Of a DNA stretch of 64,000 nucleotides, positions 24,001 through 50,001 are shown piece by piece (positions within the stretch are counted from its first letter, which is position 1; every line of letters begins with the position of its first letter). The notes below the pieces were generated by a model. The model saw only the letters and a program-made list of their open reading frames with translations, was not told the origin of the DNA and made no database searches. The translations under genes and the position numbers were made by a program. Source of the stretch: Centroscyllium fabricii (lineage: Eukaryota). Location of the stretch: NCBI GenBank assembly GCA_051313645.2, contig JBNRSN020000012.1, positions 2,604,001-2,668,000 on the forward strand. The letters run 5' to 3'.

Positions 24001-27000
24001 GGAGGGACTCAGTGAAGAGTGAGAGTGTGGGAGGGACTGAGTGAAGAGTGAGAGTGTGGGAGGATCTCAGTGAAGAGTGAGAGTGTGGGAGGAGCTCAGT
24101 GAAGAGTGAGCGTGTGGGAGGGATTCAGTGAAGAGTGAGAGTGTGGGAGGCGCTCAGTGAAGAGTGAGAGTGTGGGAGGGACTCAGTGAAGAGTGAGAGT
24201 GTGGGGGGAGCTCAGTGAAGAGTGAGTGTGTGGGAGGAGCTCAGTGAAGAGTGAGAGTGTGGGAGGCACTCAGTGAAGAGTGAGGGTGTGGGAGGGACTC
24301 AGTGAAGAGTGAGTGTGTGGGAGGAGCTCAATGAAGAGTGAGAGTGTGGGAGGAGCTCATTGAAGAGTGAGCGTGTGGGAGGAGCTCAGTGAAGAGTGAG
24401 AGTGTGGGGGGAGCTCAGTGAAGAGTGAGTGTGTGGGAGGAGCTCAGTGAAGAGTGAGAGTGTGGGAGGCACTCAGTGAAGAGTGAGGGTGTGGGAGGGA
24501 CTCTGTGAAGAGTGAGTGTGTGGGAGGAGCTCAGTGAAGAGTGAGAGTGTGGGAGGAGCTCAGTGAAGAGTGAGAGTGTGGGAGGGACTGAGTGAAGAGT
24601 GAGAGTGTGGGAGGAGCTCAGTGAAGAGTGAGAGTGTGGGAGGAGCTCAGTGAAGAGTGAGAGTGTGGGAGGAGCTCAGTGAAGAGTGAGAGTGTGTGAG
24701 GGACTGAGTGAAGAGTGAGAGTGTGGGAGGAGCTCAGTGAAGAGTGAGAGTGTGGAAGGAGCTCAGTGAAGAGTGAGAGTGTGTGAGGGACTGAGTGAAG
24801 AGTGAGAGTGTGGGAGGAGCTCAGTGAAGAGTGAGAGTGTGGGAGGAGCTCAGTGAAGAGTGAGAGTGTGGGAGGAGCTCAGTGAAGAGTGAGAGTGTGG
24901 GAGGTACTGAGTGAAGAGTGAGAGTGTGGGAGGAGCTCAGTGAAGAGTGAGAGTGTGGGAGGAGCTCAGTGAAGAGTGAGAGTGTGGGAGGAGCTCAGTG
25001 AAGAGTGAGAGTGTGTGAGGGACTGAGTGAAGAGTGAGAGTGTGGGAGGAGCTCAGTGAAGAGTGAGAGTGTGGGAGGAGCTCAGTGAAGAGTGAGAGTG
25101 TGGGAGGAGCTCAGTGAAGAGTGAGAGTGTGGGAGGAGCTCAGTGAAGAGTGAGAGTGTGGGAGGGGCTGAGTGAAGAGTGAGAGTGTGGGAGGAGTTCA
25201 GTGAAGAGTGAGCGTGTTGCAGTGACTCAGTGAAGAATGAGAGTGTGGGAGGAGCTCCGTGAAGAGTGAGCGTGTGGGAGGAGCTCAGTGAAGAGTGAGA
25301 GTGTGGGAGGAGCTCAGTGAAGAGTGAGAGTGTGGGAGGAGCTCAGTGAAGAGTGAGAGTGTGGGAGGAGCTCAGTGAAGAGTGAGCGTGTGGGAGGAGC
25401 TCAGTGAAGAGTGAGAGTGTGGGAGGAGCTCAGTGAAGAGTGAGAGTGTGGGAGGAGCTCAGTGAAGAGTGAGAGTGTGGGACGAGCTCAGTGAAGAGTG
25501 AGAGCGTGGGAGGGACTGAGTGAAGAGTGAGGGTGTGGGAGGAGCTCAGTGAAGAGTGAGAGTGTGGGAGGAGCTCAGTGAAGAGTGAGAGTGTGGGAGG
25601 AGCTCAGTGAAGAGTGAGAGTGTGGGAGGAGCTCAGTGAAGAGTGAGAGTGTGGGAGGAGCTCAGTGAAGAGTGAGAGTGTGGGAGGGGCTGAGTGAAGT
25701 GTGAGAGTGTGGGAGGGGCTGAGTGAAGAGTGAGTGTGTGGGAGGAGCTCAGTGAAGAGTGAGCGTGTGGGAGGGACTGAGTGAAGAGTGAGAGTGTGGG
25801 AGGGACTGAGTGAAGAGTGAGAGTGTGGGAGGAGCTCAGTGAAGAGTGAGCGTGTGGGAGGAGCTCAGTGAAGAGTGAGAGTGTGGGAGGGACTGAGTGA
25901 AGAGTGAGAGTGTGGGAGGACCTCAGTGAAGAGTGAGAGTGTGGGAGGGACTGAGTGAAGAGTGAGAGTGCGGGAGGAGCTCAGTGAAGAGTGAGAGTGT
26001 GGGAGGGACTGAGTGAAGAGTGAGAGTGTGGGAGGAGCTCAGTGAAGAGTGAGAGTGTGGGAGGAGCAGAGTGAAGAGTGAGAGTGTGGGAGGGACTGAG
26101 TGAAGAGTGAGAGTGTGGGAGGAGCTCAGTGAATGGTTAGAGGGGGGAATCAGTGAAGAGTGAGAGTGTGGGAGGGACTCAGTGAAGAGTGAGAGTGTGG
26201 GAGGAGCTCAGTGAAGCGTGAGAGTGTGGGAGGGACTGAGTGAAGAGTGAGAGTGTGGGAGGGACTCAGTGAAGAGTGAGAGTGTGGGAGGGACAGAGTG
26301 AAGAGTGAGAGTGCGGGAGGAGCTCAGTGAAGAGCGAGAGTGTGGGAGGGACTGAGTGAAGAGTGAGAGTGTGGGAGGAGCTCAGTGAAGAGTGAGAGTG
26401 TGGGAGGAGCAGAGTGAAGAGTGAGAGTGTGGGAGGGCCTGAGTGAAGAGTGAGAGTGTGGGAGGATCTCAATGAAGAGTGAGAGTGTGGGAGGAGCTCA
26501 GTGAAGAGTGAGCGTGTGGGAGGGACTCTGTGAAGAGTGAGAGTGTGGGAGGAGCTCAGTGAAGAGTGAGAGTGTGGGAGGGACTCAGTGAAGAGTGAGA
26601 GTGTGGGGGGAGCTCAGTGAAGAGTGAGTGTGCGGGAGGAGCTCAGTGAAGAGTGAGAGTGTGGGAGGCACTCAGTGAAGAGTGAGGGTGTGGGAGGGAC
26701 TCAGTGAAGAGTGAGTGTGTGGGAGGAGCTCAATGAAGAGTGAGAGTGTGGGAGGAGCTCATTGAAGAGTGAGCGTGTGGGAGGAGCTCAGTGAAGAGTG
26801 AGAGTGTGTGAGGGACTGAGTGAAGAGTGAGAGTGTGGGAGGGACTGTGTGAAGAGTGAGAGTGTGGGAGGAGCTCAGTGAAGAGTGAGAGTGTGGGAGG
26901 AGCTCAGTGAAGAGTGAGAGTGTGGGAGGGACTGAGTGAAGAGTGAGAGTGTGGGAGGGACTGAGTGAAGAGTGAGAGTGTGGGAGGAGCTCAGTGAATA

Positions 27001-30000
27001 GTGAGAGTGTGGGAGGAGCTCAGTGAATGGTGAGAGTGTGGGAGGAGCTCAGTGAAGAGTGAGAGCGTGGGAGGGACTGAGTGAAGAGTGAGAGTGTGGG
27101 AGGGACTGTGTGAAGAGTGAGAGTGTGGGAGGAGCTCAGTGAAGAGTGAGAGTGTGGGAGGAGCTCAGTGAAGAGTGAGAGTGTGGGAGGGACTGAGTGA
27201 AGAGTGAGAGTGTGGGAGGGACTGAGTGAAGAGTGAGAGTGTGGGAGGTGCTCAGTGAAGAGTGAGAGTGTTGGAGGGACTGAGTGAATAGTGAGAGTGT
27301 GGGAGGGACTCAGTGAAGAGTGAGAGTGTGAGAGGAGCTCAGTGAAGAGTGAGAGTGTAGGAGGAGCTCAGTGAAGTGTGAGAGTGTGGGAGGGACTGAG
27401 TGAAGAGTGAGGGAGGAACTCAGTGAAGAGTGAGCGTGTGGGAGGGACTGAGTGAAGAGTGAGAGTGTGGGAGGGACTGAGTGAAGAGTGAGAGTGTGGG
27501 AGGAGCTCAGTGAAGGGTGAGATTGTGGGAGGGACTCAGTGAAGAGTGAGAGTGTGGGAGGGACTGAGAGAAGAGTCAGAGTGTGGGAGGTGCTCAGTGA
27601 AGAGTGAGAGTGTGGGAGGAGCTCAGTGAAGAGTGAGAGTGTGGGAGGGACTGAATGAAGAGTGAGAGTGTGGGAGGAGCTCAGTGAAGAGTGAGAGTGT
27701 GGGAGGGACTGAGTGAAGAGTGAGAGTGTGGGAGGAGCTCAGTGAAGAGTGAGAGTGTGGGAGGAGCTCAGTGAAGAGTGAGTGTGGGAGGTACTGAGTG
27801 AAGAGTGAGAGTGTGGGAGGAGCTCAGTGAAGAGTGAGAGTGTGGGAGGAGCTCAGTGAAGAGTGAGAGTGTGGGAGGGACTGAGTGAAGAGTGAGAGTG
27901 TGGGAGGAGCTCAGTGAAGAGTGAGAGTGTGGGAGGGACTCAGTGAAGAGTGAGAGTGTGGGAGGAGCTCAGTGAAGAGTGAGCGTGTGGGAGGGACTGA
28001 GTGAAGAGTGAGAGTGCGGGAGGGACTGAGTGAAGAGTGCGAGTGTGGGAGGAGCTCAGTGAAGAGTGAGAGTGTGGGAGGAGCTCAGTGAAGAGTGAGC
28101 GTGTGGGAGGAGCTCAGTGAAGAGTGAGAGTGTGGGAGGGACTGAGTGAAGAGTGAGAGTGTGGGAGGGACTCAGTGAAGAGTGAGTGTGTGGGAGGGAC
28201 TGAGTGAAGAGTGAGAGTGTGGGAGGATCTCAGTGAAGAGTGAGAGTGTGGGAGGAGCTCAGTGAAGAGTGAGCGTGTGGGAGGGACTCAGTGAAGAGTG
28301 AGAGTGTGGGAGGAGCTCAGTGAAGAGTGAGAGTGTGGGAGGGACTGAGTGAAGAGTGAGAGTGTGGGAGGGACTCAGTGAAGAGTGAGAGTGTGGGAGG
28401 AGCTCAGTTAAGAGTGAGAGTGTGGGAGGGACTCAGTGAAGAGTGAGAGTGTGGGAGGAGCTCAGTGAAGAGTGAGCGTGTGGGAGGAGCTCAGTTAAGA
28501 GTGAGAGTGTGGGAGGAGCTCAGTGAAGAGTGAGAGTGTGGGAGGAGCTCAGTGAAGAGTGAGAGTGTAGGAGGAGCTCAGTGAAGAGTGAGAGTGTGGG
28601 AGGGGCTGAGTGAAGAGTGAGAGTGTGGGAGCGGCTGAGTGAAGAGTGAGAGTGTGGGAGGAGCTCAGTGAAGAGTGAGCGTGTGGGAGGGACTGAGTGA
28701 AGAGTGAGAGTGTGGGAGGGACTGAGTGAAGAGTGAGAGTGTGGGAGGAGCTCAGTGAAGAATGAGAGTGTGGGAGGGACTGAGTGAAGAGTGAGAGTGT
28801 GGGAGGGACTGAGTGAAGAGTGAGAGTGTGGGAGCAGCTCAGTGAAGAGTGAGCGTGTGGGAGGGACTGAGTGAAGAGTGAGAGGGTGGGAGGAGCTCAG
28901 TGAAGAGTGAGAGTGTGGGAGGAGCTCAGTGAAGAGTGAGAGTGTGGGAGGGACTGAGTGAAGAGTGAGAGTGTGGGAAGGACTCAGTGAAGAGTGAGAG
29001 TGTGGGAGGGACTGAGTGAAGAGTGAGAGTGTGGGAGGAGCTCAGTGAAGAGTGAGAGTGTGGGAGGAGCTCAGTGAAGAGTGAGAGTCTGGGAGGGACT
29101 GAATGAAGAGTGAGAGTGTGGGAGGAGCTCAGTGAAGAGTGAGAGTGTGGGAGGGACTGAGTGAAGAGTGAGAGTGTGGGTGGAGCTCAGTGAAGAGTGA
29201 GAGTGTGGGAGGAGCTCAGTGAAGAGTGAGAGCGTGGGAGGGACTGAGTGAAGAGTGAGAGTGTGGGAGGAGCTCAGTGAAGAGTGAGAGTGTGGGAGGA
29301 GCTCAGTGAAGAGTGAGAGTGTGGGAGGGACTGAGTGAAGAGTGAGAGTGTGGGAGGAGCTCAGTGAAGAGTGAGAGTGTGGGAGGGACTCAGTGAAGAG
29401 TGAGAGTGTGGGAGGAGCTCAGTGAAGAGTGAGCGTGTGGGAGGGACTGAGTGAAGAGTGAGAGTGCGGGAGGGACTGAGTGAAGAGTGAGAGTGTGGGA
29501 GGAGCTCAGTGAAGAGTGAGAGTGTGGGAAGAGCTCAGTGAAGAGTGAGCGTGTGGGAGGAGCTCAGTGAAGAGTGAGAGTGTGGGAGGGACTGAGTGAA
29601 GAGTGAGAGTGTGGGAGGGACTCAGTGAAGAGTGAGGGTGTGGGAGGGACTGAGTGAAGAGTGAGAGTGTGGGAGGATCTCAGTGAAGAGTGAGAGTGTG
29701 GGAGGAGCTCAGTGAAGAGTGAGCGTGTGGGAGGGACTCAGTGAAGAGTGAGAGTGTGGGAGGCGCTCAGTGAAGAGTGAGAGTGTGGGAGGGACTCAGT
29801 GAAGAGTGAGAGTGTGGGGGGAGCTCAGTGAAGAGTGAGTGTGTGGGAGGAGCTCAGTGAAGAGTGAGAGTGTGGGAGGCACTCAGTGAAGAGTGAGGGT
29901 GTGGGAGGGACTCAGTGAAGAGTGAGTGTGTGGGAGGAGCTCAATGAAGAGTGAGAGTGTGGGAGGAGCTCATTGAAGAGTGAGCGTGTGGGAGGAGCTC

Positions 30001-33000
30001 AGTGAAGAGTGAGAGTGTGGGGGGAGCTCAGTGAAGAGTGAGTGTGTGGGAGGAGCTCAGTGAAGAGTGAGAGTGTGGGAGGCACTCAGTGAAGAGTGAG
30101 GGTGTGGGAGGGACTCAGTGAAGAGTGAGTGTGTGGGAGGAGCTCAGTGAAGAGTGAGAGTGTGGGAGGAGCTCAGTGAAGAGTGAGAGTGTGGGAGGGA
30201 CTGAGTGAAGAGTGAGAGTGTGGGAGGAGCTCAGTGAAGAGTGAGAGTGTGGGAGGAGCTCAGTGAAGAGTGAGAGTGTGGGAGGAGCTCAGTGAAGAGT
30301 GAGAGTGTGGGAGGAGCTCAGTGAAGAGTGAGAGTGTGGGAGGGACTGAGTGAAGAGTGAGAGTGTGGGAGGGACTCAGTGAAGAGTGAGAGTGTGGGAG
30401 GGACTGAGTGAAGTGTGAGAGTGTGGGAGGATCTCAGTGAAGAGTGAGAGTGTGGGAGGAGCTCAGTGAAGAGTGAGCGTGTGGGAGGGACTCAGTGAAG
30501 AGTGAGAGTGTGGGAGGCGCTCAGTGAAGAGTGAGAGTGTGGGAGGGACTCAGTGAAGAGTGAGAGTGTGGGGGGAGCTCAGTGAAGAGTGAGTGTGTGG
30601 GAGGATCTCAGTGAAGAGTGAGAGTGTGGGAGGAGCTCAGTGAAGAGTGAGAGTGTGGGAGGAGCTCAGTGAAGAGTGAGAGTGTGGGAGGGGCTGAGTG
30701 AAGAGTGAGAGTGTGGGAGGGGCTGAGTGAAGAGTGAGAGTGTGGGAGGAGCTCAGTGAAGAGTGAGCGTGTTGGAGTGACTCAGTGAAGAGTGAGAGTG
30801 TGGGAGGAGCTCCGTGAAGAGTGAGCGTGTGGGAGGAGCTCAGTGAAGAGTGAGAGTGTGGGAGGAGCTCAGTGAAGAGTGAGAGTGTGGGAGGAGCTCA
30901 GTGAAGAGTGAGAGTGTGGGAGGAGCTCAGTGAAGAGTGAGAGTGTGGGAGGAGCTCAGTGAAGAGTGAGCGTGTGGGAGGAGCTCCGTGAAGAGTGAGA
31001 GTGTGGGAGGAGCTCAGTGAAGAGTGAGAGTGTGGGAGGAGCTCAGTGAAGAGTCAGAGTGTGGGAGGGACTGAGTGAAGAGTGAGGGTGTGGGAGGAGC
31101 TCAGTGAAGAGTGAGAGTGTGAGAGGAGCTCAGTGAAGAGTGAGAGTGTGGGAGGAGCTCAGTGAAGAGTGAGAGTGTGGGAGGAGCTCAGTGAAGAGTG
31201 AGAGTGTGGGAGGGGCTGAGTGAAGAGTGAGAGAGTGGGAGGGGCTGAGTGAAGAGTGAGAGTGTGGGAGGAGCTCAGTGAAGAGTGAGCGTGTGGGAGG
31301 GACTGAGTGAAGAGTGAGAGTGTGGGAGGAACTGAGTGAAGAGTGAGAGTGTGGGAGGAGCTCAGTGAAGAGTGAGCGTGTGGGAGGAGCTCAGTGAAGA
31401 GTGAGAGTGTGGGAGGGACTGAGTGAAGAGTGAGAGTGTGGGAGGGACTCAGTGAAGAGTGAGAGTGTGGGAGGGACTGAGTGAAGAGTGAGAGTGCGGG
31501 AGGAGCTCAGTGAAGAGTGAGAGTGTGGGAGGGTCTGAGTGAAGAGTGAGAGTGTGGGAGGAGCTCAGTGAAGAGTGAGAGTGTGGGAGGAGCAGAGTGA
31601 AGAGTGAGAGTGTGGGAGGGACTGAGTGAAGAGTGAGAGTGTGGGAGGAGCTCAGTGAAGGGTTAGGGGGGGACTCAGTGAAGAGTGAGAGTGTGGGAGG
31701 GACTCAGTGAAGAGTGAGAGTGTGGGAGGAGCTCAGTGAAGAGTGAGAGTGTGGGAGGGACTGAGTGAAGAGTGAGAGTGTGGGAGGGACTCAGTGAAGA
31801 GCGAGAGTGTGGGAGGGACTGAGTGAAGAGTGAGAGTGCGGGAGGAGCTCAGTGAAGAGTGAGAGTGTGGGAGGGACTGAGTGAAGAGTGAGAGTGTGGG
31901 AGGAGCTCAGTGAAGAGTGAGAGTGTGGGAGGAGCAGAGTGAAGAGTGAGAGTGTGGGAGGGACTGAGTGAAGAGTGAGAGTGTGGGAGGATCTCAATGA
32001 AGAGTGAGAGTGTGGGAGGAGCTCAGTGAAGAGTGAGCGTGTGGGAGGGACTCAGTGAAGAGTGAGAGTGTGGGAGGAGCTCAGAGAAGAGTGAGAGTGT
32101 GGGAGGGACTGAGTGAAGAGTGAGAGTGTGGGATGAGCTCAGTGAAGTGTGAGAGTGTGGGAGGGACTCAGTGAAGAGTGAGAGTGTGGGGGGAGCTCAG
32201 TGAAGAGTGAGTGTGTGGGAGGAGCTCAGTGAAGAGTGAGAGTGTGGGAGGCACTCAGTGAAGAGTGAGGGTGTGGGAGGGACTCAGTGAAGAGTGAGTG
32301 TGTGGGAGGAGCTCAATGAAGAGTGAGAGTGTGGGAGGAGCTCATTGAAGAGTGAGCGTGTGGGAGGAGCTCAGTGAAGAGTGAGAGTGTGTGAGGGACT
32401 GAGTGAAGAGTGAGAGTGTGGGAGGAGTTCAGTGAAGAGTGAGCGTGTGGGAGGAGCTCAGTGAAGTGTGAGAGTGTGGGAGGGACTGAGTGAAGAGTGA
32501 GAGTGTGGGAGGAGCTCAGTGAAGAGTGAGCGTGTGGGAGTGACTCAGTGAAGAGTGAGAGTGTGGGAGGAGCTCAGTGAAGAGTGAGCGTGTGGGAGGA
32601 GCTCAGTGAAGAGTGAGAGTGTGGGAGGAGCTCATTGAAGAGTGAGAGTGTGGGAGGAGCTCAGTGAAGAGTGAGAGTGTGGGAGGGACTGAGTGAAGAG
32701 TGAGGGTGTGGGAGGGACTCAGTGAAGAGTGAGTGTGTGGGAGGAGCTCAGTTAAGAGTGAGAGTGTGGAAGGAGCTCAGTGAAGAGTGAGAGTGTGGGA
32801 GGAGCTCAGTGAAGAGTGAGAGTGTGGGAGGAGCTCAGTGAAGAGTGAGAGTGTGGGAGGGGCTGAGTGAAGAGTGAGAGTGTGGGAGCGGCTGAGTGAA
32901 GAGTGAGAGTGTGGGAGGAGCTCAATGAAGAGTGAGCGTGTGGGAGGGACTGAGTGAAGAGTGAGAGTGTGGGAGGGACTGAGTGAAGAGTGAGAGTGTG

Positions 33001-36000
33001 GGAGGAGCTCAGTGAAGAGTGAGAGTGTGGGAGGGACTGAGTGAAGAGTGAGAGTGTGGGAGGGACTGAGTGAAGAGTGAGAGTGTGGGAGGAGCTCAGT
33101 GAAGAGTGAGCGTGTGGGAGGGACTGAGTGAAGAGTGAGAGTGTGGGAGGAGCTCAGTGAAGAGTGAGAGTGTGGGAGGAGCTCAGTGAAGAGTGAGAGT
33201 GTGGGAGGGACTGAGTGAAGAGTGAGAGTGTGGGAGGGACTCAGTGAAGAGTGAGAGTGTGGGAGGGACTGAGTGAAGAGTGAGAGTGTGGGAGGAGCTC
33301 AGTGAAGAGTGAGAGTGTGGGAGGAGCTCAGTGAAGAGTGAGAGTGTGGGAGGGACTGAATGAAGAGTGAGAGTGTGGGAGGAGCTCAGTGAAGAGTGAG
33401 AGTGTTGGAGGGACTGAGTGAAGAGTGAGAGTGTGGGAGGAGCTCAGTGAAGAGTGAGAGTGTGGGAGGAGCTCAGTGAAGAATGAGAGTGTGGGAGGGA
33501 CTGAGTGAAGAGTGAGAGTGTGGGAGGAGCTCAGTGAAGAGTGAGAGTGTGGGAGGAGCTCAGTGAAGAGTGAGAGTGTGGGAGGGACTGAGTGAAGAGT
33601 GAGAGTGTGGGAGGAGCTCAGTGAAGAGTGAGAGTGTTGGAGGGACTCAGTGAAGAGTGAGAGTGTGGGAGGAGCTCAGTGAAGAGTGAGCGTGTGGGAG
33701 GGACTGAGTGAAGAGTGAGAGTGCGGGAGGGACTGAGTGAAGAGTGAGAGTGTGGGAGGAGCTCAGTGAAGAGTGAGAGTGTGGGAGGAGCTCAGTGAAG
33801 AGTGAGCGTGTGGGAGGAGCTCAGTGAAGAGTGAGAGTGTGGGAGGGACTGAGTGAAGAGTGAGAGTGTGGGAGGGACTCAGTGAAGAGTGAGAGTGTGG
33901 GAGGGACTGAGTGAAGAGTGAGAGTGTGGGAGGATCTCAGTGAAGAGTGAGAGTGTGGGAGGAGCTCAGTGAAGAGTGAGCGTGTGGGAGGGACTCAGTG
34001 AAGAGTGAGAGTGTGGGAGGCGCTCAGTGAAGAGTGAGAGTGTGGGAGGGACTCAGTGAAGAGTGAGAGTGTGGGGGGAGCTCAGTGAAGAGTGAGTGTG
34101 TGGGAGGAGCTCAGTGAAGAGTGAGAGTGTGGGAGGCACTCAGTGAAGAGTGAGGGTGTGGGAGGGACTCAGTGAAGAGTGAGTGTGTGGGAGGAGCTCA
34201 ATGAAGAGTGAGAGTGTGGGAGGAGCTCATTGAAGAGTGAGCGTGTGGGAGGAGCTCAGTGAAGAGTGAGAGTGTGTGAGGGACTGAGTGAAGAGTGAGA
34301 GTGTGGGAGGAGCTCAGTGAAGAGTGAGAGTGTGGGAGGAGCTCAGTGAAGAGTGAGAGTGTGGGAGGATCTCAGTGAAGAGTGAGAGTGTGGGAGGGAC
34401 TGAGTGAAGAGTGAGAGTGTGGGAGGAGCTCAGTGAAGAGTGAGAGTGTGGGAGGAGCTCAGTGAAGAGTGAGAGTGTGGGAGGAGCTCAGTGAAGAGTG
34501 AGAGTGTGTGAGGGACTGAGTGAAGAGTGAGAGTGTGGGAGGAGGTCAGTGAAGAGTGAGAGTGTGGGAGGAGCTCAGTGAAGAGTGAGAGTGTGGGAGG
34601 AGCTCAGTGAAGAGTGAGAGTGTGGGAGGAGCTCAGTGAAGAGTGAGAGTGTGGGAGGGGCTGAGTGACGAGTGAGAGTGTGGGAGGGGCTGAGTGAAGA
34701 GTGAGAGTGTGGGAGGTGCTCAGTGAAGAGTGAGCGTGTTGGAGTGACTCAGTGAAGAGTGAGAGTGTGGGAGGAGCTCCGTGAAGAGTGAGCGTGTGGG
34801 AGGAGCTCAGTGAAGAGTGAGAGTGTGGGAGGAGCTCAGTGAAGAGTGAGAGTGTGGGTGGAGCTCAGTGAAGAGTGAGAGTGTGGGAGGAGCTCAGTGA
34901 AGAGTGAGAGTGTGGGAGGAGCTCAGTGAAGAGTGAGCGTGTGGGAGGAGCTCAGTGAAGAGTGAGAGTGTGGGAGGAGCTCAGTGAAGAGTGAGAGTGT
35001 GGGAGGAGCTCAGTGAAGAGTGAGAGTGTGGGAGTTGCTCAGTGAAGAGTGAGAGTGTGGGAGGGACTGATTGAAGAGTGAGGGTGTGGGAGGAGCTCAG
35101 TGAAGAGTGAGAGTGTGGGAGGAGCTCAGTGAAGAGTGAGAGTGTGGGAGGAGCTCAGTGAAGAGTGAGAGTGTGGGAGGAGCTCAGTGAAGAGTGAGAG
35201 TGTGGGAGGAGCTCAGTGAAGAGTGAGAGTGTGGGAGGGGCTGAGTGAAGAGTGAGAGTGTGGGAGGGGCTGAGTGAAGAGTGAGAGTGTGGGAGGAGCT
35301 CAGTGAAGAGTGAGCGTGTGGGAGGGACTGAGTGAAGAGTGAGAGTGTGGGAGGGACTGAGTGAAGAGTGAGAGTGTGGGAGGAGCTCAGTGAAGAGTGA
35401 GCATGTGGGAGGAGCTCAGTGAAGAGTGAGAGTGTGGGAGGGACTGAGTGAAGAGTGAGAGTGTGGGAGGGCCTCAGTGAAGAGTGAGAGTGTGGGAGGG
35501 ACTGAGTGAAAAGTGAGAGTGCGGGAGGAGCTCAGTGAAGAGTGAGAGTGTGGGAGGGACTGAGTGAAGAGTGAGAGTGTGGGAGGAGCTCAGTGAAGAG
35601 TGAGAGTGTGGGAGGAGCAGAGTGAAGAGTGAGAGTGTGGGAGGGACTGAGTGAAGAGTGAGAGTGTGGGAGGAGCTCAGTGAAGGGTTAGGGGGGAGAC
35701 TCAGTGAAGAGTGAGTGTGTGGGAGGGACTCAGTGAAGAGTGAGAGTGTGGGAGGAGCTCAGTGAAGAGTGAGAGTGTGGGAGGGAATGAGTGAAGAGTG
35801 AGAGTGTGGGAGGGACTCAGTGAAGAGCGAGAGTGTGGGAGGGACTGAGTGAAGAGTGAGAGTGCGGGAGGAGCTCAGTGAAGAGTGAGAGTGTGGGAGG
35901 GACTGAGTGAAGAGTGAGAGTGTGGGAGGAGCTCAGTGAAGAGTGAGAGTGTGGGAGCAGCAGAGTGAAGAGTGAGAGTGTGGGAGGGACTGAGTGAAGA

Positions 36001-36278
36001 GTGAGAGTGTGGGAGGATCTCAATGAAGAGTGAGAGTGTGGGAGGAGCTCAGTGAAGAGTGAGCGTGTGGGAGGGACTCAGTGAAGAGTGAGTTTGTGGG
36101 AGGAGCTCAGTGAAGAGTGAGTGTGTGGGAGGGACTGAGTGAAGAGTGAGAGTGTGGGATGAGCTCAGTGAAGAGTGAGAGTGTGGGAGGGACTCAGTGA
36201 AGAGTGAGAGTGTGGGGGGAGCTCAGTGAAGAGTGCCCGGCCTGCTAGTCTAGAACGCCCGATCCCAAATCGACCTCG

Positions 36279-36311
<33 letters not shown>

Positions 36312-39300
36312 GGATGGGAGACCATCGGGGAAGACCAGGTGCAATAGCAGGCAGTGACCACGGAGGAGGCGCTAACGCGCGGTCAAAAAGCAGACCGTTA
36401 ACCGGTCTGTTAAAAACTCCATCCACCACTTCGAAAGAAGACACGATAAGAAGAAGAAGTGAAGAGTGAGTGTGTGGGAGGAGCTCAGTGAAGAGTGAGA
36501 GTGTGGGAGGCACTCAGTGAAGAGTGAGGTTGTGGGAGGGACTCAGTGAAGAGTGAGTGTGTGGGAGGAGCTCAATGAAGAGTGAGAGTGTGGGCGGAGC
36601 TCATTGAAGAGTGAGCGTGTGGGAGGAGCTCAGTGAAGAGTGAGAGTGTGTGAGGGACTGAGTGGAGAGTGTGGGAGGAGTTCAGTGAAGAGTGAGCGTG
36701 TGGGAGGAGCTCAGTGAAGGGTGAGAGTGTGGGAGGGACTGAGTGAAGAGTGAGAGTGTGGGAGGAGCTCAGTGAAGAGTGAGCGTGTGGGAGTGACTCA
36801 GTGAAGAGTGAGAGTGTGGGAGGAGCTCAGTGAAGAGTGAGCGTGTGGGAGGAGCTCAGTGAAGAGTGAGAGTGTGGGAGGAGATCAGTGAAGAGTGAGA
36901 GTGTGGGAGGAGCTCAGTGAAGAGTGAGAGTGTGGGAGGGACTGAGTGAAGAGTGAGGGTGTGGGAGGGACTCAGTGAAGAGTGAGAGTGTGGGAGGAGC
37001 TCAGTAAAGAGTGAGAGTGTGGGAGGAGCTCAGTGAAGAGTGAGAGTGTGGGAGGAGCTCAGTGAAGAGTGAGAGTGTGGGAGGAGCTCAGTGAAGAGTG
37101 AGAGTGTGGGAGGGGCTGAGTGAAGAGTGAGAGTGTGGGAGCGGCTGAGTGAAGAGTGAGAGTGTGGGAGGAGCTCAGTGAAGAGTGAGCGTGTGGGAGG
37201 GACTGATTGAAGAGTGAGAGTGTGGGAGGGACTGAGTGAAGAGTGAGAGTGTGGGAGGAGCTCAGTGAAGAGTGAGAGTGTGGGAGGGACTGAGTGAAGA
37301 GTGAGAGTGTGGGAGGGACTGAGTGAAGAGTGAGAGTGTGGGAGGAGCTCAGTGAAGAGTGAGCGTGTGGGAGGGACTGAGTGAAGAGTGAGAGTGTGGG
37401 AGGAGCTCAGTGAAGAGTGAGAGTGTGGGAGGAGCTCAGTGAAGAGTGAGTGTGTGGGAGGGACTCAGTGAAGAGTGAGAGTTTGGGAGGGACTGAGTGA
37501 AGAGTGAGAGTGTGGGAGGAGCTCAGTGAAGAGTGAGAGTGTGGGAGGAGCTCAGTGAAGAGTGAGAGTGTGGGAGGGACTGAGTGAAGAGTGAGAGTGT
37601 GGGAGGAGCTCAGTCAAGAGTGAGAGTGTGGGAGGGACTGAGTGAAGAGTGAGAGTGTGGGAGGAGCTCAGTGAAGAGTGAGAGTGTGGGAGGAGCTCAG
37701 TGAAGAGTGAGAGTGTGGGAGGAGCTCAGTGAAGAGTGAGAGTGTGGGAGGGACGGAGTGAAGAGTGAGAATGTGGGAGGAGCTCAGTGAAGAGTGAGAG
37801 TGTGGGAGGGACTGAGTGAAGAGTGAGAGTGTGGGAGGAGCTCAGTGAAGAGTGAGAGTGTGGAAGGGACTCAGTGAAGAGTGAGAGTGTGGGAGGAGCT
37901 CAGTGAAGAGTGAGCGTGTGGGAGGGACTGAGTGAAGAGTGAGAGTGCGGGAGGGACTGAGTGAAGAGTGAGAATGTGGGAGGAGCTCAGTGAAGAGTGA
38001 GAGTGTGGGAGGGACTGAGTGAAGAGTGAGAGTGTGGGAGGGACTGAGTGAAGAGTGAGAGTGCGGGAGGAGCTCAGTGAAGAGTGAGAGTGTGGGAGGG
38101 ACTGAGTGAAGAGTGAGAGTGTGGGAGGGACTGAGTGAAGAGTGAGAGTGTGGGAGGGACTGAGTGAAGAGTGAGAGTGCGGGAGGAGCTCAGTGAAGAG
38201 TGAGAGTGTGGGAGGAGCTCAGTGAAGAGTGAGAGTGTGGGAGGGACTGAGTGAAGAGTGAGAGTGCGGGAGGAGCTCAGTGAAGAGTGAGAGTGTGGGA
38301 GGGACTGAGTGAAGAGTGAGAGTGTGGGAGGGACTGAGTGAAGAGTGAGAGTGCGGTAGGAGCTCAGTGAAGAGTGAGAGTGTGGGAGGGACTCAGTGAA
38401 GAGTGAGAGTGTGGGAGGGACTCAGTGAAGAGTGAGCGTGTGGGAGGGGCTCAGTGAAGAGTGAGAGTGTGGGAGGAGCTCAGTGAAGAGTGAGAGTTTG
38501 TGAGGGACTGAGTGAAGAGTGAGAGTGTGGGAGGAGCTCAGTGAAGAGTGAGAGTGTGGGAGGGACTGAGTGAAGAGTGAGAGTGTGGGAGGAGCTCAGT
38601 GAAGAGTGAGAGTGTGGGAGGAGCTCAGTGAAGAGTGAGAGTGTGGGAGGAGCTCAGTGAAGAGTGAGAGTGTGGGAGGGACGGAGTGAAGAGTGAGAAT
38701 GTGGGAGGAGCTCAGTGAAGAGTGAGAGTGTGGGAGGGACTGAGTGAAGAGTGAGAGTGTGGGAGGAGCTCAGTGAAGAGTGAGAGTGTGGAAGGGACTC
38801 AGTGAAGAGTGAGAGTGTGGGAGGAGCTCAGTGAAGAGTGAGCGTGTGGGAGGGACTGAGTGAAGAGTGAGAGTGCGGGAGGGACTGAGTGAAGAGTGAG
38901 AATGTGGGAGGAGCTCAGTGAAGAGTGAGAGTGTGGGAGGGACTGAGTGAGGAGTGAGAGTGTGGGAGGGACTGAGTGAAGAGTGAGAATGCGGGAGGAG
39001 CTCAGTGAAGAGTGAGAGTGTGGGAGGGACTCAGTGAAGAGTGAGAGTGTGGGAGGGACTGAGTGAAGAGTGAGAGTGTGGGAGGGACTGAGTGAAGAGT
39101 GAGAGTGCGGGAGGAGCTCAGTGAAGAGTGAGAGTGTGGGAGGAGCTCAGTGAAGAGTGAGAGTGTGGGAGGAGCTCAGTGAAGAGTGAGAGTGTGGGAG
39201 GGACTGAGTGAAGAGTGAGAGTGCGGGAGGAGCTCAGTGAAGAGTGAGAGTTTGGGAGGGACTGAGTGAAGAGTGAGAGTGTGGGAGGGACTGAGTGAAG

Positions 39301-42300
39301 AGTGAGAGTGCGGGAGGAGCTCAGTGAAGAGTGAGAGTGTGGGAGGGACTCAGTGAAGAGTGAGAGTGTGGGAGGGACTCAGTGAAGAGTGAGCGTGTGG
39401 GAGGGGCTCAGTGAAGAGTGAGAGTGTGGGAGGAGCTCAGTGAAGAGTGAGAGTTTGTGAGGGACTGAGTGAAGAGTGAGAGTGTGGGAGGAGCTCAGTG
39501 AAGAGTGAGAGTGTGGGAGGGACTGAGTGAAGAGTGAGAGTGTGGGAGGAGCTCAGTGAAGAGTGAGTGTGTGGGAGGAGCTCAGTGAAGAGTGAGAGTG
39601 TGGGAGGAGCTCAGTGAAGAGTGAGAGTGTGGGAGGAGCTCAGTGAAGAGTGAGAGTGTGGGAGGAGCTCAGTGAAGAGTGAGAGTGTGGGAGGGGCTGA
39701 GTGACGAGTGAGAGTGTGGGAGGGGCTGAGTGAAGAGTGAGAGTGTGGGAGGTGCTCAGTGAAGAGTGAGCGTGTTGGAGTGACTCAGTGAAGAGTGAGA
39801 GTGTGGGAGGAGCTCCGTGAAGAGTGAGCGTGTGGGAGGAGCTCAGTGAAGAGTGAGAGTGTGGGAGGAGCTCAGTGAAGAGTGAGAGTGTGGGTGGAGC
39901 TCAGTGAAGAGTGAGAGTGTGGGAGGAGCTCAGTGAAGAGTGAGAGTGTGGGAGGAGCTCAGTGAAGAGTGAGCGTGTGGGAGGAGCTCAGTGAAGAGTG
40001 AGAGTGTGGGAGGAGCTCAGTGAAGAGTGAGAGTGTGGGAGGAGCTCAGTGAAGAGTGAGAGTGTGGGAGTTGCTCAGTGAAGAGTGAGAGTGTGGGAGG
40101 GACTGAGTGAAGAGTGAGGGTGTGGGAGGAGCTCAGTGAAGAGTGAGAGTGTGGGAGGAGCTCAGTGAAGAGTGAGAGTGTGGGAGGAGCTCAGTGAAGA
40201 GTGAGAGTGTGGGAGGAGCTCAGTGAAGAGTGAGAGTGTGGGAGGAGCTCAGTGAAGAGTGAGAGTGTGGGAGGGGCTGAGTGAAGAGTGAGAGTGTGGG
40301 AGGGGCTGAGTGAAGAGTGAAAGTGTGGGAGGAGCTCAGTGAAGAGTGAGCGTGTGGGAGGGGCTGAGTGAAGAGTGAGAGTGTGGGAGGGGCTGAGTGA
40401 AGAGTGAAAGTGTGGGAGGAGCTCAGTGAAGAGTGAGAGTGTGGGAGGGACTGAGTGAAGAGTGAGAGTGTGGGAGGGACTCAGTGAAGAGTGAGAGTGT
40501 GGTAGGGACTGAGTGAAAAGTGAGAGTGCGGGAGGAGCTCAGTGAAGAGTGAGAGTGTGGGAGGGACTGAGTGAAGAGTGAGAGTGTGGGAGGAGCTCAG
40601 TGAAGAGTGAGAGTGTGGGAGGAGCAGAGTGAAGAGTGAGAGTGTGGGAGGGACTGAGTGAAGAGTGAGAGTGTGGGAGGAGCTCAGTGAAGGGTTAGGG
40701 GGGAGACTCAGTGAAGAGTGAGAGTGTGGGAGGGACTCAGTGAAGAGTGAGAGTGTGGGAGGAGCTCAGTGAAGAGTGAGAGTGTGGGAGGGAATGAGTG
40801 AAGAGTGAGAGTGTGGGAGGGACTCAGTGAAGAGCGAGAGTGTGGGAGGGACTGAGTGAAGAGTGAGAGTGCGGGAGGAGCTCAGTGAAGAGTGAGAGTG
40901 TGGGAGGGACTGAGTGAAGAGTGAGAGTGTGGGAGGAGCTCAGTGAAGAGTGAGAGTGTGGGAGGAGCAGAGTGAAGAGTGAGAGTGTGGGAGGGACTTA
41001 GTGAAGAGTGAGAGTGTGGGAGGATCTCAATGAAGAGTGAGAGTGTGGGATGAGCTCAGTGAAGAGTGAGAGTGTGGGAGGGACTCAGTGAAGAGTGAGT
41101 TTGTGGGAGGAGCTCAGTGAAGAGTGAGTGTGTGGGAGGGACTGAGTGAAGAGTGAGAGTGTGGGATGAGCTCAGTGAAGAGTGAGAGTGTGGGAGGGAC
41201 TCAGTGAAGAGTGAGAGTGTGGGGGGAGCTCAGTGAAGAGTGAATGTGTGGGAGGAGCTCAGTGAAGAGTGAGAGTGTGTGAGGCACTCAGTGAAGAGTG
41301 AGGTTGTGGGAGGGACTCAGTGAAGAGTGAGTGTGTGGGAGGAGCTCAATGAAGAGTGAGAGTGTGGGCGGAGCTCATTGAAGAGTGAGCGTGTGGGAGG
41401 AGCTCAGTGAAGAGTGAGAGTGTGTGAGGGACTGAGTGAAGAGTGAGAGTGTGGGAGGAGTTCAGTGAAGAGTGAGCGTGTGGGAGGAGCTCAGTGAAGA
41501 GTGAGAGTGTGGGAGGGACTGAGTGAAGAGTGAGAGTGTGGGAGGAGCTCAGTGAAGAGTGAGCGTGTGGGAGTGACTCAGTGAAGAGTGAGAGTGTGGG
41601 AGGAGCTCAGTGAAGAGTGAGCGTGTGGGAGGAGCTCAGTGAAGAGTGAGAGTGTGGGAGGAGCTCAGTGAAGAGTGAGAGTGTGGGAGGAGCTCAGTGA
41701 AGAGTGAGAGTGTGGGAGGGACTGAGTGAAGAGTGAGGGTGTGGGAGGGACTCAGTGAAGAGTGAGAGTGTGGGAGGAGCTCAGTGAAGAGTGAGAGTGT
41801 GGGAGGAGCTCAGTGAAGAGTGAGAGTGTGGGAGGAGCTCAGTGAAGAGTGAGAGTGTGGGAGGAGCTCAGTGAAGAGTGAGAGTGTGGGAGGGGCTGAG
41901 TGAAGAGTGAGAGTGTGGGAGCGGCTGAGTGAAGAGTGAGAGTGTGGGAGGAGCTCAGTGAAGAGTGAGCGTGTGGGAGGGACTGATTGAAGAGTGAGAG
42001 TGTGGGAGGGACTGAGTGAAGAGTGAGAGTGTGGGAGGAGCTCAGTGAAGAGTGAGAGTGTGGGAGGGACTGAGTGAAGAGTGAGAGTGTGGGAGGGACT
42101 GAGTGAAGAGTGAGAGTGTGGGAGGAGCTCAGTGAAGAGTGAGCGTGTGGGAGGGACTGAGTGAAGAGTGAGAGTGTGGGAGGAGCTCAGTGAAGAGTGA
42201 GAGTGTGGGAGGAGCTCAGTGAAGAGTGAGAGTGTGGGAGGGACTCAGTGAAGAGTGAGAGTTTGGGAGGGACTGAGTGAAGAGTGAGAGTGTGGGAGGA

Positions 42301-45300
42301 GCTCAGTGAAGAGTGAGAGTGTGGGAGGAGCTCAGTGAAGAGTGAGAGTGTGGGAGGGACTGAGTGAAGAGTGAGAGTGTGGGAGGAGCTCAGTCAAGAG
42401 TGAGAGTGTGGGAGGGACTGAGTGAAGAGTGAGAGTGTGGGAGGAGCTCAGTGAAGAGTGAGAGTGTGGGAGGAGCTCAGTGAAGAGTGAGAGTGTGGGA
42501 GGAGCTCAGTGAAGAGTGAGAGTGTGGGAGGGACGGAGTGAAGAGTGAGAATGTGGGAGGAGCTCAGTGAAGAGTGAGAGTGTGGGAGGGACTGAGTGAA
42601 GAGTGAGAGTGTGGGAGGAGCTCAGTGAAGAGTGAGAGTGTGGAAGGGACTCAGTGAAGAGTGAGAGTGTGGGAGGAGCTCAGTGAAGAGTGAGCGTGTG
42701 GGAGGGACTGAGTGAAGAGTGAGAGTGCGGGAGGGACTGAGTGAAGAGTGAGAATGTGGGAGGAGCTCAGTGAAGAGTGAGAGTGTGGGAGGGACTGAGT
42801 GAAGAGTGAGAGTGTGGGAGGGACTGAGTGAAGAGTGAGAGTGCGGGAGGAGCTCAGTGAAGAGTGAGAGTGTGGGAGGGACTCAGTGAAGAGTGAGAGT
42901 GTGGGAGGGACTGAGTGAAGAGTGAGAGTGTGGGAGGGACTGAGTGAAGAGTGAGAGTGCGGGAGGAGCTCAGTGAAGAGTGAGAGTGTGGGAGGAGCTC
43001 AGTGAAGAGTGAGAGTGTGGGAGGGACTGAGTGAAGAGTGAGAGTGCGGGAGGAGCTCAGTGAAGAGTGAGAGTGTGGGAGGGACTGAGTGAAGAGTGAG
43101 AGTGTGGGAGGGACTGAGTGAAGAGTGAGAGTGCGGGAGGAGCTCAGTGAAGAGTGAGAGTGTGGGAGGGACTCAGTGAAGAGTGAGAGTGTGGGAGGGA
43201 CTCAGTGAAGAGTGAGCGTGTGGGAGGGGCTCAGTGAAGAGTGAGAGTGTGGGAGGAGCTCAGTGAAGAGTGAGAGTTTGTGAGGGACTGAGTGAAGAGT
43301 GAGAGTGTGGGAGGAGCTCAGTGAAGAGTGAGAGTGTGGGAGGGACTCAGTGAAGAGTGAGAGTGTGGGAGGAGCTCAGTGAAGAGTGAGTGTGTGGGAG
43401 GAGCTCAGTGAAGAGTGAGAGTGTGGGAGGAGCTCAGTGAAGAGTGAGAGTGTGGGAGGAGCTCAGTGAAGAGTGAGAGTGTGGGAGGCACTCAGTGAAG
43501 AGTGAGTGTGTGGGAGGGACTGAGTGAAGAGTGAGAGTGTGGGAGGAGCTCAGTGAAGAGTGAGAGTGTGGGAGGAGCTCAGTGAAGAGTGAGCATGTGG
43601 GAGGAGCTCAGTGAAGAGTGAGATTGTGGGAGGGACTGAGTGAAGAGTGAGAGTGTGGGAGGAGCTCAGTGAAGAGTGAGCGTGTGGGAGGAGCTCAGTG
43701 TAGAGTGAGAGTGTGGGAGGGACTGAGTGAAGAGTGAGAGTGTGGGAGGAGCTCAGTGAAGAGTGAGCGTGTGGGAGGTTCTCAGTGAAGAGTGAGAGTG
43801 TGGGAGGAGCTCAGTGAAGAGTGAGCATGTGGGAGGAGCTCAGTAAAGAGTGAGAGTGTGGGAGGAGCTCAGTGTAGAGTGAGATTGTGGGAGGGACTGA
43901 GTGAAGAGTGAGAGTGTGGGAGGAGCTCAGTGAAGAGTGAGCGTGTGGGAGGGTCTCAGTGAAGAGTGAGAGTGTGGGAGGAGCTCAGTGAAGAGTGAGC
44001 ATGTGGGAGGAGCTCAGTGAAGAGTGAGAGTGTGGGAGGAGCTCAGTGATGAGTGAGAGTGTGGGAGGGGCTGAGTGAAGAGTTGGAGTGTGGGAGGAGC
44101 TCAGTGAAGAGTGAGAGTGTGGGAGGAGCTCAGTGAAGAGTGAGAGTGTGGGAGTGACTCAGTGAAGAGTGAGAGTGTGGGAGGGACTGAGTGAAGAGTG
44201 AGAGTGTGGGAGGAGCTCAGTGAAGAGTGAGAGTGTGGGAGGAGCTCAGTGAAGAGTGAGAGTGTGGGAGGAGCTCAGTGAAGAGTGAGAGTGTGGGAGG
44301 AGCTCAGTGAAGAGTGTGAGTGTGGGAGGAGCTCAGTGAAGAGTGAGAGTGTGGGAGGGGCTGAGTGAAGAGTGAGAGTGTGGGAGGAGCTCAGTGAAGA
44401 GTGAGAGTGTGGGAGGAGCTCAGTGAAGAGTGAGAGTGTGGGAGGGGCTGAGTGAAGAGTGAGAGTGTGGGAGGAGCTCAGTGAAGAGTGAGAGTGTGGG
44501 AGGAGCTCAGTGAAGAGTGAGAGTGTGGGAGGGGCTGAGGGAAGAGTGAGGGTGTGGGAGGGACTGAGTGAAGAGTGAGAGTGTGGGAGGAGCTCAGTGA
44601 AGAGTGAGAGTGTGGGAGGAGCTCAGTGAAGAGTGAGAGTGTGGGAGGAGCTCAGTGAAGAGTGGGAGTGTGGGAGGAGCTCAGTGAAGAGTGAGAGTGT
44701 GGGAGGGGCTGAGTGAAGAGTGAGAGTGTGGGAGGAGCTCAGTGAAGAGTGAGAGTGTGGGAGGAGCTCAGTGAAGAGTGAGAGTGTGGGAGGAGCTCAG
44801 TGAAGAGTTAGATTGTGGGAGGGGCTGAGTGAAGAGTGAGAGTGTGGGAGGAGCTCAGTGAAGAGTGAGAGTGTGGGAGGAGCTCAGTGAAGAGTGAGAG
44901 TGTGGGAGGGGCTGAGTGAAGAGTGAGAGTGTGGGAGGAGCTCAGTGAAGAGTGAGAGTGTGGGAGGAGCTCAGTGAAGAGTGAGAGTGTGGGAGGGGCT
45001 GAGTGAAGAGTGAGGGTGTGGGAGGGACTGAGTGAAGAGTGAGAGTGTGGGAGGAGCTCAGTGAAGAGTGAGAGTGTGGGAGGAGCTCAGTGAAGAGTGA
45101 GAGTGTGGGAGGAGCTCAGTGAAGGGTGAGAGTGTGGAGGGACTGAGTGAAGAGTGAGAGTGTTGGAGGAGCTCAGTGAAGAGTGAGAGTGTGGGAGGAG
45201 CTCAGTGAAGAGTGAGAGTGTGGGAGGAGCTCAGTGAAGCGTGAGAGTGTGGGAGGGGCTGAGTGAAGAGTGAGAGTGTGGGTGGGACTGAGTGACGAGT

Positions 45301-45326
45301 GAGAGTGCGGGAGGATCTCAGTGAAG
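1..45326. repeat. 29-bp G-rich satellite array (~1,550 monomers), consensus GAGTGAGAGTGTGGGAG(GAGCTC/GGACTG/GGACTC)AGTGAA; runs off the left edge
   Basis: Continuous 29-nt periodicity read directly. It ends abruptly at ...GGATCTCAGTGAAG|TTAAAGG (45326). The only foreign insert is at 36236-36457. Confidence 0.98.
36236..36457 (+). mobile_element. 5S rRNA-derived SINE (SINE3 type) with (AAG)n tail, inserted in the satellite
   Basis: 5S-like head with A box AGCTAAGCAG (36281), intermediate element GGTCAGT (36301) and C box TGGATGGGAG (36311). Then a ~95-bp non-5S body and tail GATAAGAAGAAGA. TSD AGTGAAGAGTG at 36225-36235 and 36458-36468. Confidence 0.9.
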
Positions 45327-46021: not shown

Positions 46022-46169
46022 AGCACATTATGGCTCAGTGGGTAACAGTCTCGCTCTCTGATTCAGAAGGTTGTGGGTTCAAGATCATTTCAGACACTTG
46101 AGCCCTTAACCTAATCTGACACTTAAGTGCAGTACTGAGGGAGCGCTGCACTGTCGGAGGTGCCGTCTT
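46022..46169 (+). mobile_element. 5' part of a SacSINE1-like DeuSINE (tRNA head and start of Deu domain), cut off by CR1
   Basis: A box TGGCTCAGTGG, B-box-like GGTTCAAGATC, then GCAGTACTGAGGGAGCGCTGCACTGTCGGAGGTGCCGTCTT. Homologous to 48395-48540 and 60585-60612. Confidence 0.8.
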
Positions 46170-46170
46170 G

Positions 46171-46726: not shown

Positions 46727-46902
46727 CCCCAGAGGGCTGTGGATGCCGAAACGTTGAGTATATTTAAGGCTGAGATCAGTAGCTGTTTGGACTCGAGGGG
46801 AATCGAGGGATATTGGGATCGGGCGGGAAAGTGTTGAGGTTGAAGATCAGCCTGGATCTTATTGAATGGCGGAGCAGACTCGAGATTCCGAATGGCTGGC
46901 TC
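46727..46902 (+). mobile_element. CR1 3' fragment (opposite orientation)
   Basis: CCCAGAGGGCTGTGGA...GATCAGCC..GATCTTATTGAATGGCGGAGCAG is the reverse complement of the flanking CR1 3' ends. Confidence 0.85.
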
Positions 46903-48187
46903 ACAAGAACATAAGAACAAACGAGATAGGAGCAGGAATAGTCCACTTGGCCCCTCGAGCCTGCTCCGCCATTCAATAAGATCATGGCTGATCTTGGGCT
47001 CAAAGCCACTTCCCTGCCTGCTCCCCATAATCCTTCACTCCCTTATCTTGCAAAAATCTGTCTATCTCCACCTTAAATGTATTTAATGACCCAGCCTCCA
47101 TGGCTCTCTGGGGCAGAGAATTCCACAGATTTACGACCCTCTGAGTGAAGAGATTTCTCCTCATCTCAGTTCTAAAAGGGCGATCGCTTATTCTGAAACT
47201 ATGCCCCCGGGTCCTAGATTTCCCCACGAGGGGAAACATCCTCTCAGCATCTACCCTGTCAATCCCCCTCAGTATGTTATATGTTTTAATAAGATCCCCT
47301 CTCATTCTTCTAAACTCCAATGAGTATCGGCCCAACCTGCTCAACCTTTCCTTATAAGTCAACCCCCTAATCTCTGGAATTAACCGTGTGAATCGTCTCT
47401 GAACTGCGTCCAATGCAAGTATATCCTTCCTTAAATAAGGAGACCAAAACTGTACGCAGTGCTCCAGGTGTGGTCTCACCAATACCCAGTACAGTTGTAG
47501 CAGAACTTCCTGCTTTTATACTCCAACCCCCTTGAAATAAAGGCCAACATTCCATTTGCCTTTTTGATTTCTTGCTGTACCTGCTGCTAACTTTTTGTCT
47601 TTCATGCACAAGGACCCCCAGGTCCCTCTGAACTATAGCCTTTTGTAATCTCTCTCCGTTTAAATAATAATTTGCTTTTTTATTTTTCCTGCCAAAGTGG
47701 ATAACCTCGCACTTTCCCACATTATACTCCATCTGCCAAATGTTTGCCCTGTCTCCTAGCCTGTCTATATCCCTTTGCAGATTCTTTGTGTCCTCTGCAC
47801 AACTTGCTTTCCCACCCATCTTTGTATCATCTGCAAACTTGGCTACATTACACTCGATCCTTTCATCCAAGTCATTAATGTAGATTGTAAATAGTTGGGG
47901 CCCCAGCACCGATCCCTGTGGCACCTCACCAGTTACCGTTTGCCAATCAGAAAATGACCCATTTATCTCAACTCTCTGCTTTCTGTTAGTTAGCCAATTC
48001 TCTATCCATGCTAATATATTACCCCCATTCCAAGATGTCTGATCTTATGCAGTAACTTTTATGTGGCACGTTATCGAATGCCTTCCAGAAATCCAAATAC
48101 ACCACATCTACTGGTCCCCATTTATCCACCCTACTCGTTACATCCTCAAAGAACTCCTGCAAATTTGTTAAACATCATTTGCTTTTC
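46903..48187 (-). mobile_element. 5'-truncated CR1 LINE with frameshifted reverse transcriptase (RT)
   Basis: RT motifs PQGSVLGP and FADD (ORF 47367-47924), C-terminus VRPHLEHCVQFWSP...WNSLP (ORF 47000-47482), then 3' UTR and tail. Confidence 0.93.
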
Positions 48188-48189
48188 AG

Positions 48190-48310
48190 AAGGTCAAAGA
48201 TCAGCCATGATCTTACTGAATGGTGGAGCAGACGCGAGGGGCCGAATGGCCTACTCATACAAACATAAGAAATAGGACCAGCAATAGGCCACGTGGCCCC
48301 TCGGGCTCCT
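48190..48310. mobile_element. Two short CR1/HE1-type 3' ends joined tail to tail (+48190-48256, -48257-48310)
   Basis: GATCAGCCATGATC...GAATGGCCTACTC followed by AACATAAGAAATAGGACCAGCAATAGGCCACGTGGCCCCTCG. Confidence 0.75.
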
Positions 48311-49995: not shown

Positions 49996-50001
49996 TATAA
50001 A
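49996..50001 (+). promoter_or_regulatory. Candidate LTR TATA box
   Basis: CCCG-TATAAA-GAAG in the middle of the LTR, present in both LTRs. The start site is not verified. Confidence 0.5.

Follow-up and report, generated by a model that had tools for sequence, protein, structure and literature searches.

The window analysed here, the whole stretch of 64,000 nucleotides, contains a 222-bp insert (36236-36457) that interrupts a 29-bp minisatellite and that is a real element, most likely a variant SINE3 whose body is a disabled ribozyme (Table 1). The interpretation that we favor, with a probability of roughly 0.6, is that this is a young SINE3 in which a head derived from 5S rRNA is joined to the two ends, 5' and 3', of a Vingi/Ingi-type LINE, the ribozyme of which has been disabled because its cleavage would remove the promoter. 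The wider proposal, that the insert represents a SINE3 family from cartilaginous fish that is as yet undescribed and was active recently, the first one with a 5S head to rely on a Vingi/Ingi LINE, and that its entire body is a dead HDV-like ribozyme the fold of which is under selection, is put forward only tentatively.

Table 1. Features of the SINE3 insert and its host array (positions are those of the window)
Feature	Position	Strand	Remarks
Host 29-bp minisatellite array	1..45326		about 1566 units, 90% matches
Left target-site duplication, AGTGAAGAGTG	36225..36235	+	final G possibly identical with the first base of the head
5S rRNA-derived head	36236..36353	+	Rfam RF00001 at 36240-36353, 59.1 bits, E 7.9e-10
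Rebuilt terminal helix, 5' arm	36240..36247	+	exact complement of 36345-36352, 8 bp, in the register of 5S helix I
Type-1 Pol III internal control region (box A, intermediate element, box C)	36281..36328	+	ungapped Rfam alignment
HDV-like ribozyme fold, predicted inactive	36354..36424	+	descriptor search, 24 pairs
P1 of the ribozyme-like fold	36355-59/36381-85	+	
P2 of the ribozyme-like fold	36362-68/36417-24	+	one bulge
P3 of the ribozyme-like fold	36369-71/36378-80	+	
P4 of the ribozyme-like fold	36389-97/36403-11	+	
Putative LINE-derived 3' end	36425..36447	+	4-nt linker, CTTC-GAAA-GAAG hairpin, ACACGAT
(AAG)n tail	36448..36457	+	extends two bases into the right duplication
Right target-site duplication, AGTGAAGAGTG	36458..36468	+	

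Across the insert, the spacing of the minisatellite motif is 29, 29, 233 and 29, and when the flanks are joined (40 bases from each side), the resulting 80-bp uninterrupted site has 12 exact occurrences elsewhere in the array. Given this spacing and the 12 empty sites, the repeated AGTGAAGAGTG is a true duplication, as the initial annotation had proposed. The fixed length of 11 bp that was assigned to it there did not hold: the length is ambiguous between 8 and 11 bp, because the first two bases extend the AAG repeat and the last G may open the head. Only 2 nt of microhomology are found at the junction between the insert and the duplication; the GAAGA microhomology between tail and target that had been suggested is displaced from the junction by three bases, being located within the duplication, and was rejected as out of the priming register. 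The insert is the sole interruption of more than 90 bp in the minisatellite array and the only copy of this SINE in the window; with one copy, the window by itself does not bear out the terms 'young' and 'family' of the initial annotation. The minisatellite itself, at least 45 kb long, is strongly G-skewed, lacks T4 runs on the + strand, and displays a higher-order spacing of 203 bp, which corresponds to 7 units.

The Rfam match of the head covers positions 1-120 of the RF00001 model, for which the gathering score is 38; at the gathering score, 5S rRNA is the only family detected in the whole window. Near its 5' end, the head is about 9 nt shorter than 5S rRNA, with the deletion located in helix I and loop A. 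The positions of box A, the intermediate element and box C within the head are those of Xenopus 5S rRNA, which we assume to apply here, and given that the Rfam alignment is ungapped through the promoter region, the boxes lie at normal spacing. The longest T run inside the insert is 2, so that an internal terminator is lacking. The type-1 Pol III elements thus appear intact, as previously described, and transcription by RNA polymerase III from the internal 5S promoter would be expected. The first T4 downstream of the insert is 8,960 bases away; a copy that lacks a terminator for about 9 kb is therefore unlikely to be a source copy.

According to the available text on SINEBase, a SINE counts as 5S-derived when 60 nt or more of it are at least 60% identical to 5S rRNA (PMC3531059); the head matches the Rfam model with 59.1 bits and is identical to the Repbase 5S consensus in 54 of 65 columns, as counted by eye. 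Over the span common to both comparisons, the head agrees with that of CoeSINE5 in 60 of 65 columns, and altogether in about 78 of 87 (both by eye), which provides a lead toward a head inherited from a SINE rather than a fresh capture of 5S rRNA. As is typical of SINE3, the element is short and non-tandem, has a body and a tail beyond the RNA gene, and is flanked by a target duplication. It is highly improbable that the insert is a dispersed variant 5S rRNA gene or pseudogene with a chance hairpin region downstream: such a gene would account for the near full-length Rfam match and the conserved promoter but not for the lack of a T-run terminator after the 5S part, the missing 5' bases of helix I and loop A, or the presence of a target duplication, a repeat tail and a structured body of 104 nt.

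The body that follows the head was first described as short and unique. A short body is indeed present, but it is not featureless: its fold resembles an HDV ribozyme. The body folds more stably than 200 of 200 shuffled sequences (z = -3.33 and -3.69), and bases that are unpaired in this fold are able to form one more helix. A descriptor of the form P1-P2-P3-L3-P3'-P1'-P4-P2', which was composed after inspection of the sequence and permits one bulge in P2, yielded 42 parses of the body, the best of them with 24 pairs, and no parse in any of 2000 dinucleotide shuffles. The helices that define HDV-like ribozymes, as given in the available part of PMC3185411, are all found: P1, P2, a P3 of 3 bp and P4 occur in the nested double-pseudoknot order. 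The same helices in the same order, including a 3-bp P3, are described in the accessible portions of the literature on the L1Tc/ingi Pr77 and R2 ribozymes (PMC3185411, PMC4035085, PMC6765202). Unlike those ribozymes, the body lies inside a predicted Pol III transcript rather than at the 5' end, and it lacks two essential features, the P1.1 pair and the J4/2 cytosine. In HDV-like ribozymes, this cytosine is the general acid, according to the available text of PMC6765202. In each of the five best parses, the stretch that links P4 to P2 is free of C, and the position that is occupied by the catalytic C in the Vingi examples discussed below is a U (36410). The P1.1 pair (1-2 bp), the partners of which in the Vingi examples are a C in L3 and a G after P1, is missing, with an A at 36374 and a J1/4 composed entirely of A. 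Self-cleavage of the body RNA 5' of P1 is accordingly predicted to be negative. An Rfam E-value search of the body detected no match to a ribozyme family; matches to Hrs13 and mir-128, both far below the gathering score, were rejected.

The supplement of PMC5786205 contains, along with the alligator SINE2-1_AMi, 5' end sequences from four Vingi LINEs, and these five sequences, compared by eye, share the layout of the body; P3 is formed by GCG/CGC in four of them, and P4 includes CAG/CTG in every one. We read them, again by eye, as probable HDV-like ribozyme layouts in which the C at the catalytic position is kept; the available text of the paper does not itself describe the Vingi ends as ribozymes. 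Counted by eye, 14 of the 18 positions in the P3-L3-P3'-P1' core of the body are the same in Vingi-2_SPur, and 14 are the same in SINE2-1_AMi; for the segment from P1 through P1', the count is 22 of 33 in either comparison. Within P1, a single two-sided change separates the body from Vingi-2_SPur, and pairing is preserved. A degenerate Vingi core motif, written after the sequence had been inspected, fits 36369-36384 with one substitution and one deletion; equal or better fits were obtained in 3 of 20,000 shuffles of the body and at one site in the remainder of the window. The heptamer CGCGGTC occurs twice in the 141,770 characters of the supplement, both times in Vingi 5' ends, two other motifs of the body do not occur in it, and none of the three is found in an RTE row. 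The available text of the same paper (PMC5786205) notes that LINEs of the RTE, R1, R2, R4, Ingi and LOA groups also bear 5' ribozymes; the comparison of the body covers the Vingi ends printed there, and its derivation from Vingi is putative.

The 3' part of the insert can be compared to the same alligator element. In SINE2-1_AMi, P2 is followed by a 4-nt linker, a hairpin of 5 bp, the motif ACACGA and a purine tail, which is the order seen in the insert; the tail of SINE2-1_AMi was labelled 'unknown' by Kojima in 2018 (PMC5786205). The tail hairpin of the insert (4 bp, GAAA loop) has z = -2.88, with 6 of 200 shuffles equally stable. The end in (AAG)n was correctly recognized from the outset, consisting of three complete units and one that merges into the duplication. 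No mention of the 10-nt tail motif was found in the retrotransposition literature that was searched; the tail was compared to SINE2-1_AMi and to BovB ends. In the supplement, GACACGA was found in five places: two BovB-type rows, SINE2-1_AMi and two unrelated sequences.

These observations bear on the choice of the partner LINE, which the initial annotation had sought in the RTE clade. Under that alternative, the insert would belong to a SINE3 family moved by an RTE-clade or other ribozyme-bearing LINE, with a body derived from that LINE or left behind after a tail swap. RTE LINEs bear HDV-like ribozymes, tail exchange among SINEs is common, SINEs that combine 5S and RTE components are already known, and the tail resembles BovB 3' ends. 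That resemblance is limited to GACACGA and a gapped TCG-AAAGA. In BovB, furthermore, GACACGA belongs to a different hairpin and is located 10-20 nt ahead of the repeat, whereas in the insert it abuts the tail, as it does in SINE2-1_AMi. In a comparison by eye with the CoeSINE5 and SINE-1_Pmo examples in the supplement of PMC5786205, no RTE 5'-UTR segment is visible in the body, and the core motif is confined to the Vingi rows of that supplement. The layout of body and tail fits Vingi-derived sequences better, and an RTE partner is the less likely reading; if the partner were an RTE LINE after all, the insert would be an ordinary additional member of a known SINE type. The novelty that had been attributed to the combination of a 5S head and an RTE tail would not follow in any case, given that Ped-1, CoeSINE5, SINE-1_Pmo and HaSE3 already have this structure.

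Whether the insert is one of many copies, a SINE3 family being expected to number at least 100 interspersed ones per genome, was addressed with sequencing runs, in which the evidence consists of the occurrence of 18 sampled words (31-mers) rather than of aligned copies. Among the 21 runs listed, 20 contain some of the 18 words and 13, from 4 studies, contain at least half. When the possible source study is left out, there remain 9 runs from 3 studies, with word shares of 0.61-0.89 in 175-422 million letters; among these are organism B, organism C, three unlabelled runs and two fish gut metagenomes. Eight runs with word shares of 0.22 or less were excluded as no evidence, and no RNA run containing words of the insert is among the runs listed. 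Because the head and the junctions account for 118 of the 192 possible 31-mers of the insert, the 8 of the 9 runs with shares of at least 0.67 probably include words from the body. Provided that the letter counts reflect sequencing depth, the presence of the words in data sets this small is an indirect sign of numerous copies that are nearly identical. The body motifs had no matches in GTDB genomes and none in IMG/VR, collections that, like the metagenome contigs, hold little eukaryotic DNA. A match to the tail motif in a metagenome contig was rejected as a chance occurrence, being limited to a 21-mer on the minus strand of an AT-rich, gene-dense contig; that contig is phage-like and contains methyltransferase-like frames.

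Two further explanations were considered. The first is a one-off chimera, generated by a template switch from the RNA of a non-autonomous LINE to 5S RNA or an older SINE3 RNA and never multiplied. One copy in 64 kb and no further copy in the three collections scanned, with their small eukaryotic content, are what such an event would produce. Arguments against it are the occurrence of most of the sampled words in small runs and under different organism labels, a remodelled head that still closes a new, perfect 8-bp terminal helix, and a body in which the helices of the ribozyme are kept and its catalytic positions lost; we consider a one-off chimera quite improbable. Long satellite arrays are error-prone in assembly, and the second explanation is an assembly artefact within the array. 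The clean duplication in phase with the array and the 13 runs with at least half of the words make this the least probable of all the explanations considered.

The conclusion that no Deu or V domain is present was upheld: BLAST detected no significant similarity between the insert and the SINE pieces of the window that are Deu-like or V-like, and the fold and the tail account for the 104-nt body. The broader view of the insert, as an element of 5S origin that was mobilised by a LINE and has neither a Deu or V domain nor a CR1/L2 tail, is likewise supported. The search for a partner LINE by means of the SINE tail, which had been recommended, was carried out within the 64-kb window and found no LINE end that shares it; the two degraded LINE fragments of the window, with reverse transcriptase matches at 46900-48250 (-) and 61700-64000 (-), both lack the tail of the SINE. 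We take these fragments to be CR1-like and RTEX- or L2-like.

Beyond the 29-bp array, the window contains several other repeats. Two SINE pieces (about 46115-46170 and 60590-60650) resemble, in a comparison by eye, the Deu domain of SINE2-2_CM from the elephant shark. Together with known repeat signatures and the two fish gut metagenomes that contain most words of the insert, this resemblance makes a cartilaginous fish likely as the host. A SINE-like piece that has a tRNA head and a CR1-type tail, presumably V-SINE-like, is located at 60060-60420 (+); ARAGORN predicted 0 tRNA genes in the window, this piece included. A recent LTR retroelement spans 49024-59943 (+), with LTRs at 49024-50788 and 58179-59943 that are 99.5% identical (8 mismatches in 1766) and with CACC duplicated at both sides. 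Its frames encode a zinc knuckle, a protease, RT, RT_RNaseH, RNase_H and integrase, the RT being split across two frames near 53660-53700; the two RNase H-type domains presumably recall retrovirus-like lineages, and no envelope family was detected in the single downstream frame that was scanned. The LTR element is inserted into an array of 33-bp tandem repeats (48510-49019, 59964-60052 and 60429-60604), which, judging by eye from SINE2-2_CM, may have been amplified from the start of a Deu-like SINE domain and would then be a SINE-derived satellite. A 16-bp minisatellite of 31 copies occupies 61162-61662.

Among the known systems, SINE2-1_AMi (tRNA, Vingi 5' end and unknown 3' end; PMC5786205) resembles the insert in having P1-P4, the linker, the hairpin, ACACGA and a purine-rich tail, and differs from it in its tRNA head, in keeping the J4/2 cytosine and the P1.1 bases, and in its P2, P4 and tail repeat. 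The anole elements SINE2-1_ACar/SINE2-1B_Acar share with the insert a Pol III head and a bipartite Vingi remnant; as described in the available parts of PMC4494074 and PMC3747384, which served for a comparison by description only, the head is a tRNA and the remnant consists of 5' and 3' parts of Vingi-2_ACar. CoeSINE5 of the coelacanth (5S, RTE 5' and RTE 3' ends, 225 bp; PMC5786205) is of the same size and plan, but its body and tail are RTE-derived without visible similarity to the insert, its tail is (CAA)n, and no ribozyme fold was noted in it. Ped-1, which is listed as 5S plus RTE in a table within the available text of PMC3747384, SINE-1_Pmo and HaSE3 also combine a 5S head with the lack of a Deu domain and a CR1/L2 tail; they carry RTE 5'-UTR segments in place of the ribozyme-like body and reside in other hosts. 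The 5S DeuSINEs of that same partial source (zebrafish SINE3, AmnSINE1 and OS-SINE1; PMC3747384) have a 5S-derived head in common with the insert but possess a Deu domain and tails of the CR1/L2 or RSg-1 type; the insert shows no such domain or tail. The partner LINEs of SINE3 are given as CR1, I and RTE in the accessible part of PMC7245038, which makes SINE3-1_TC, with its I-clade partner, the nearest precedent there. In the literature searched on SINE3, 5S-derived SINEs and Vingi, we found no description of this element, no SINE that combines 5S with Vingi and no SINE3 from a cartilaginous fish; Repbase, Dfam or SINEBase may contain it.

The data are compatible with the following scenario for the origin and mobility of a SINE3 with Vingi/Ingi-type ends. 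An internally deleted Vingi/Ingi-type LINE would have been captured by a 5S-headed element via template switch or module exchange, in accord with the model of Kojima, who proposed, in the available text, that SINE bodies derive from LINE 5' ends (Kojima 2018, PMC5786205). The body would then be the 5' HDV-like ribozyme of the LINE, with its fold retained and its catalysis disabled. The same text points out that an active ribozyme downstream of a SINE head would produce 5' truncation (Kojima 2018, PMC5786205); here, it would cut the joint between head and body, so that every new insertion would lack the promoter, and cleavage 5' of P1 may have been lost for that reason. SINE2-1_AMi keeps the J4/2 cytosine behind its tRNA head, and therefore, loss of this cytosine is not universal. 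The fold itself may be retained for RNA stability or for protein binding. RNA polymerase III would transcribe the element from the promoter inside the 5S head, the reverse transcriptase of the putative partner LINE would recognize the hairpin-ACACGA-(AAG)n end, and insertion would occur via target-primed reverse transcription, leaving the observed 8-11 bp duplication.

If the ribozyme reading is correct, the element keeps a whole ribozyme that is nevertheless disabled at its catalytic positions, which would make the incompatibility idea of Kojima (2018) directly testable. The pairing of 5S with Vingi would be added to the known SINE-LINE pairs, and the element would provide a natural minimal template of about 100 nt for Vingi enzymes, which, according to the available part of PMC13708176, are under development for gene insertion. 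Should the fold prove to be under selection even though the ribozyme is dead, this would imply that the LINE machinery or RNA stability requires the shape of the ribozyme apart from its cleavage activity.
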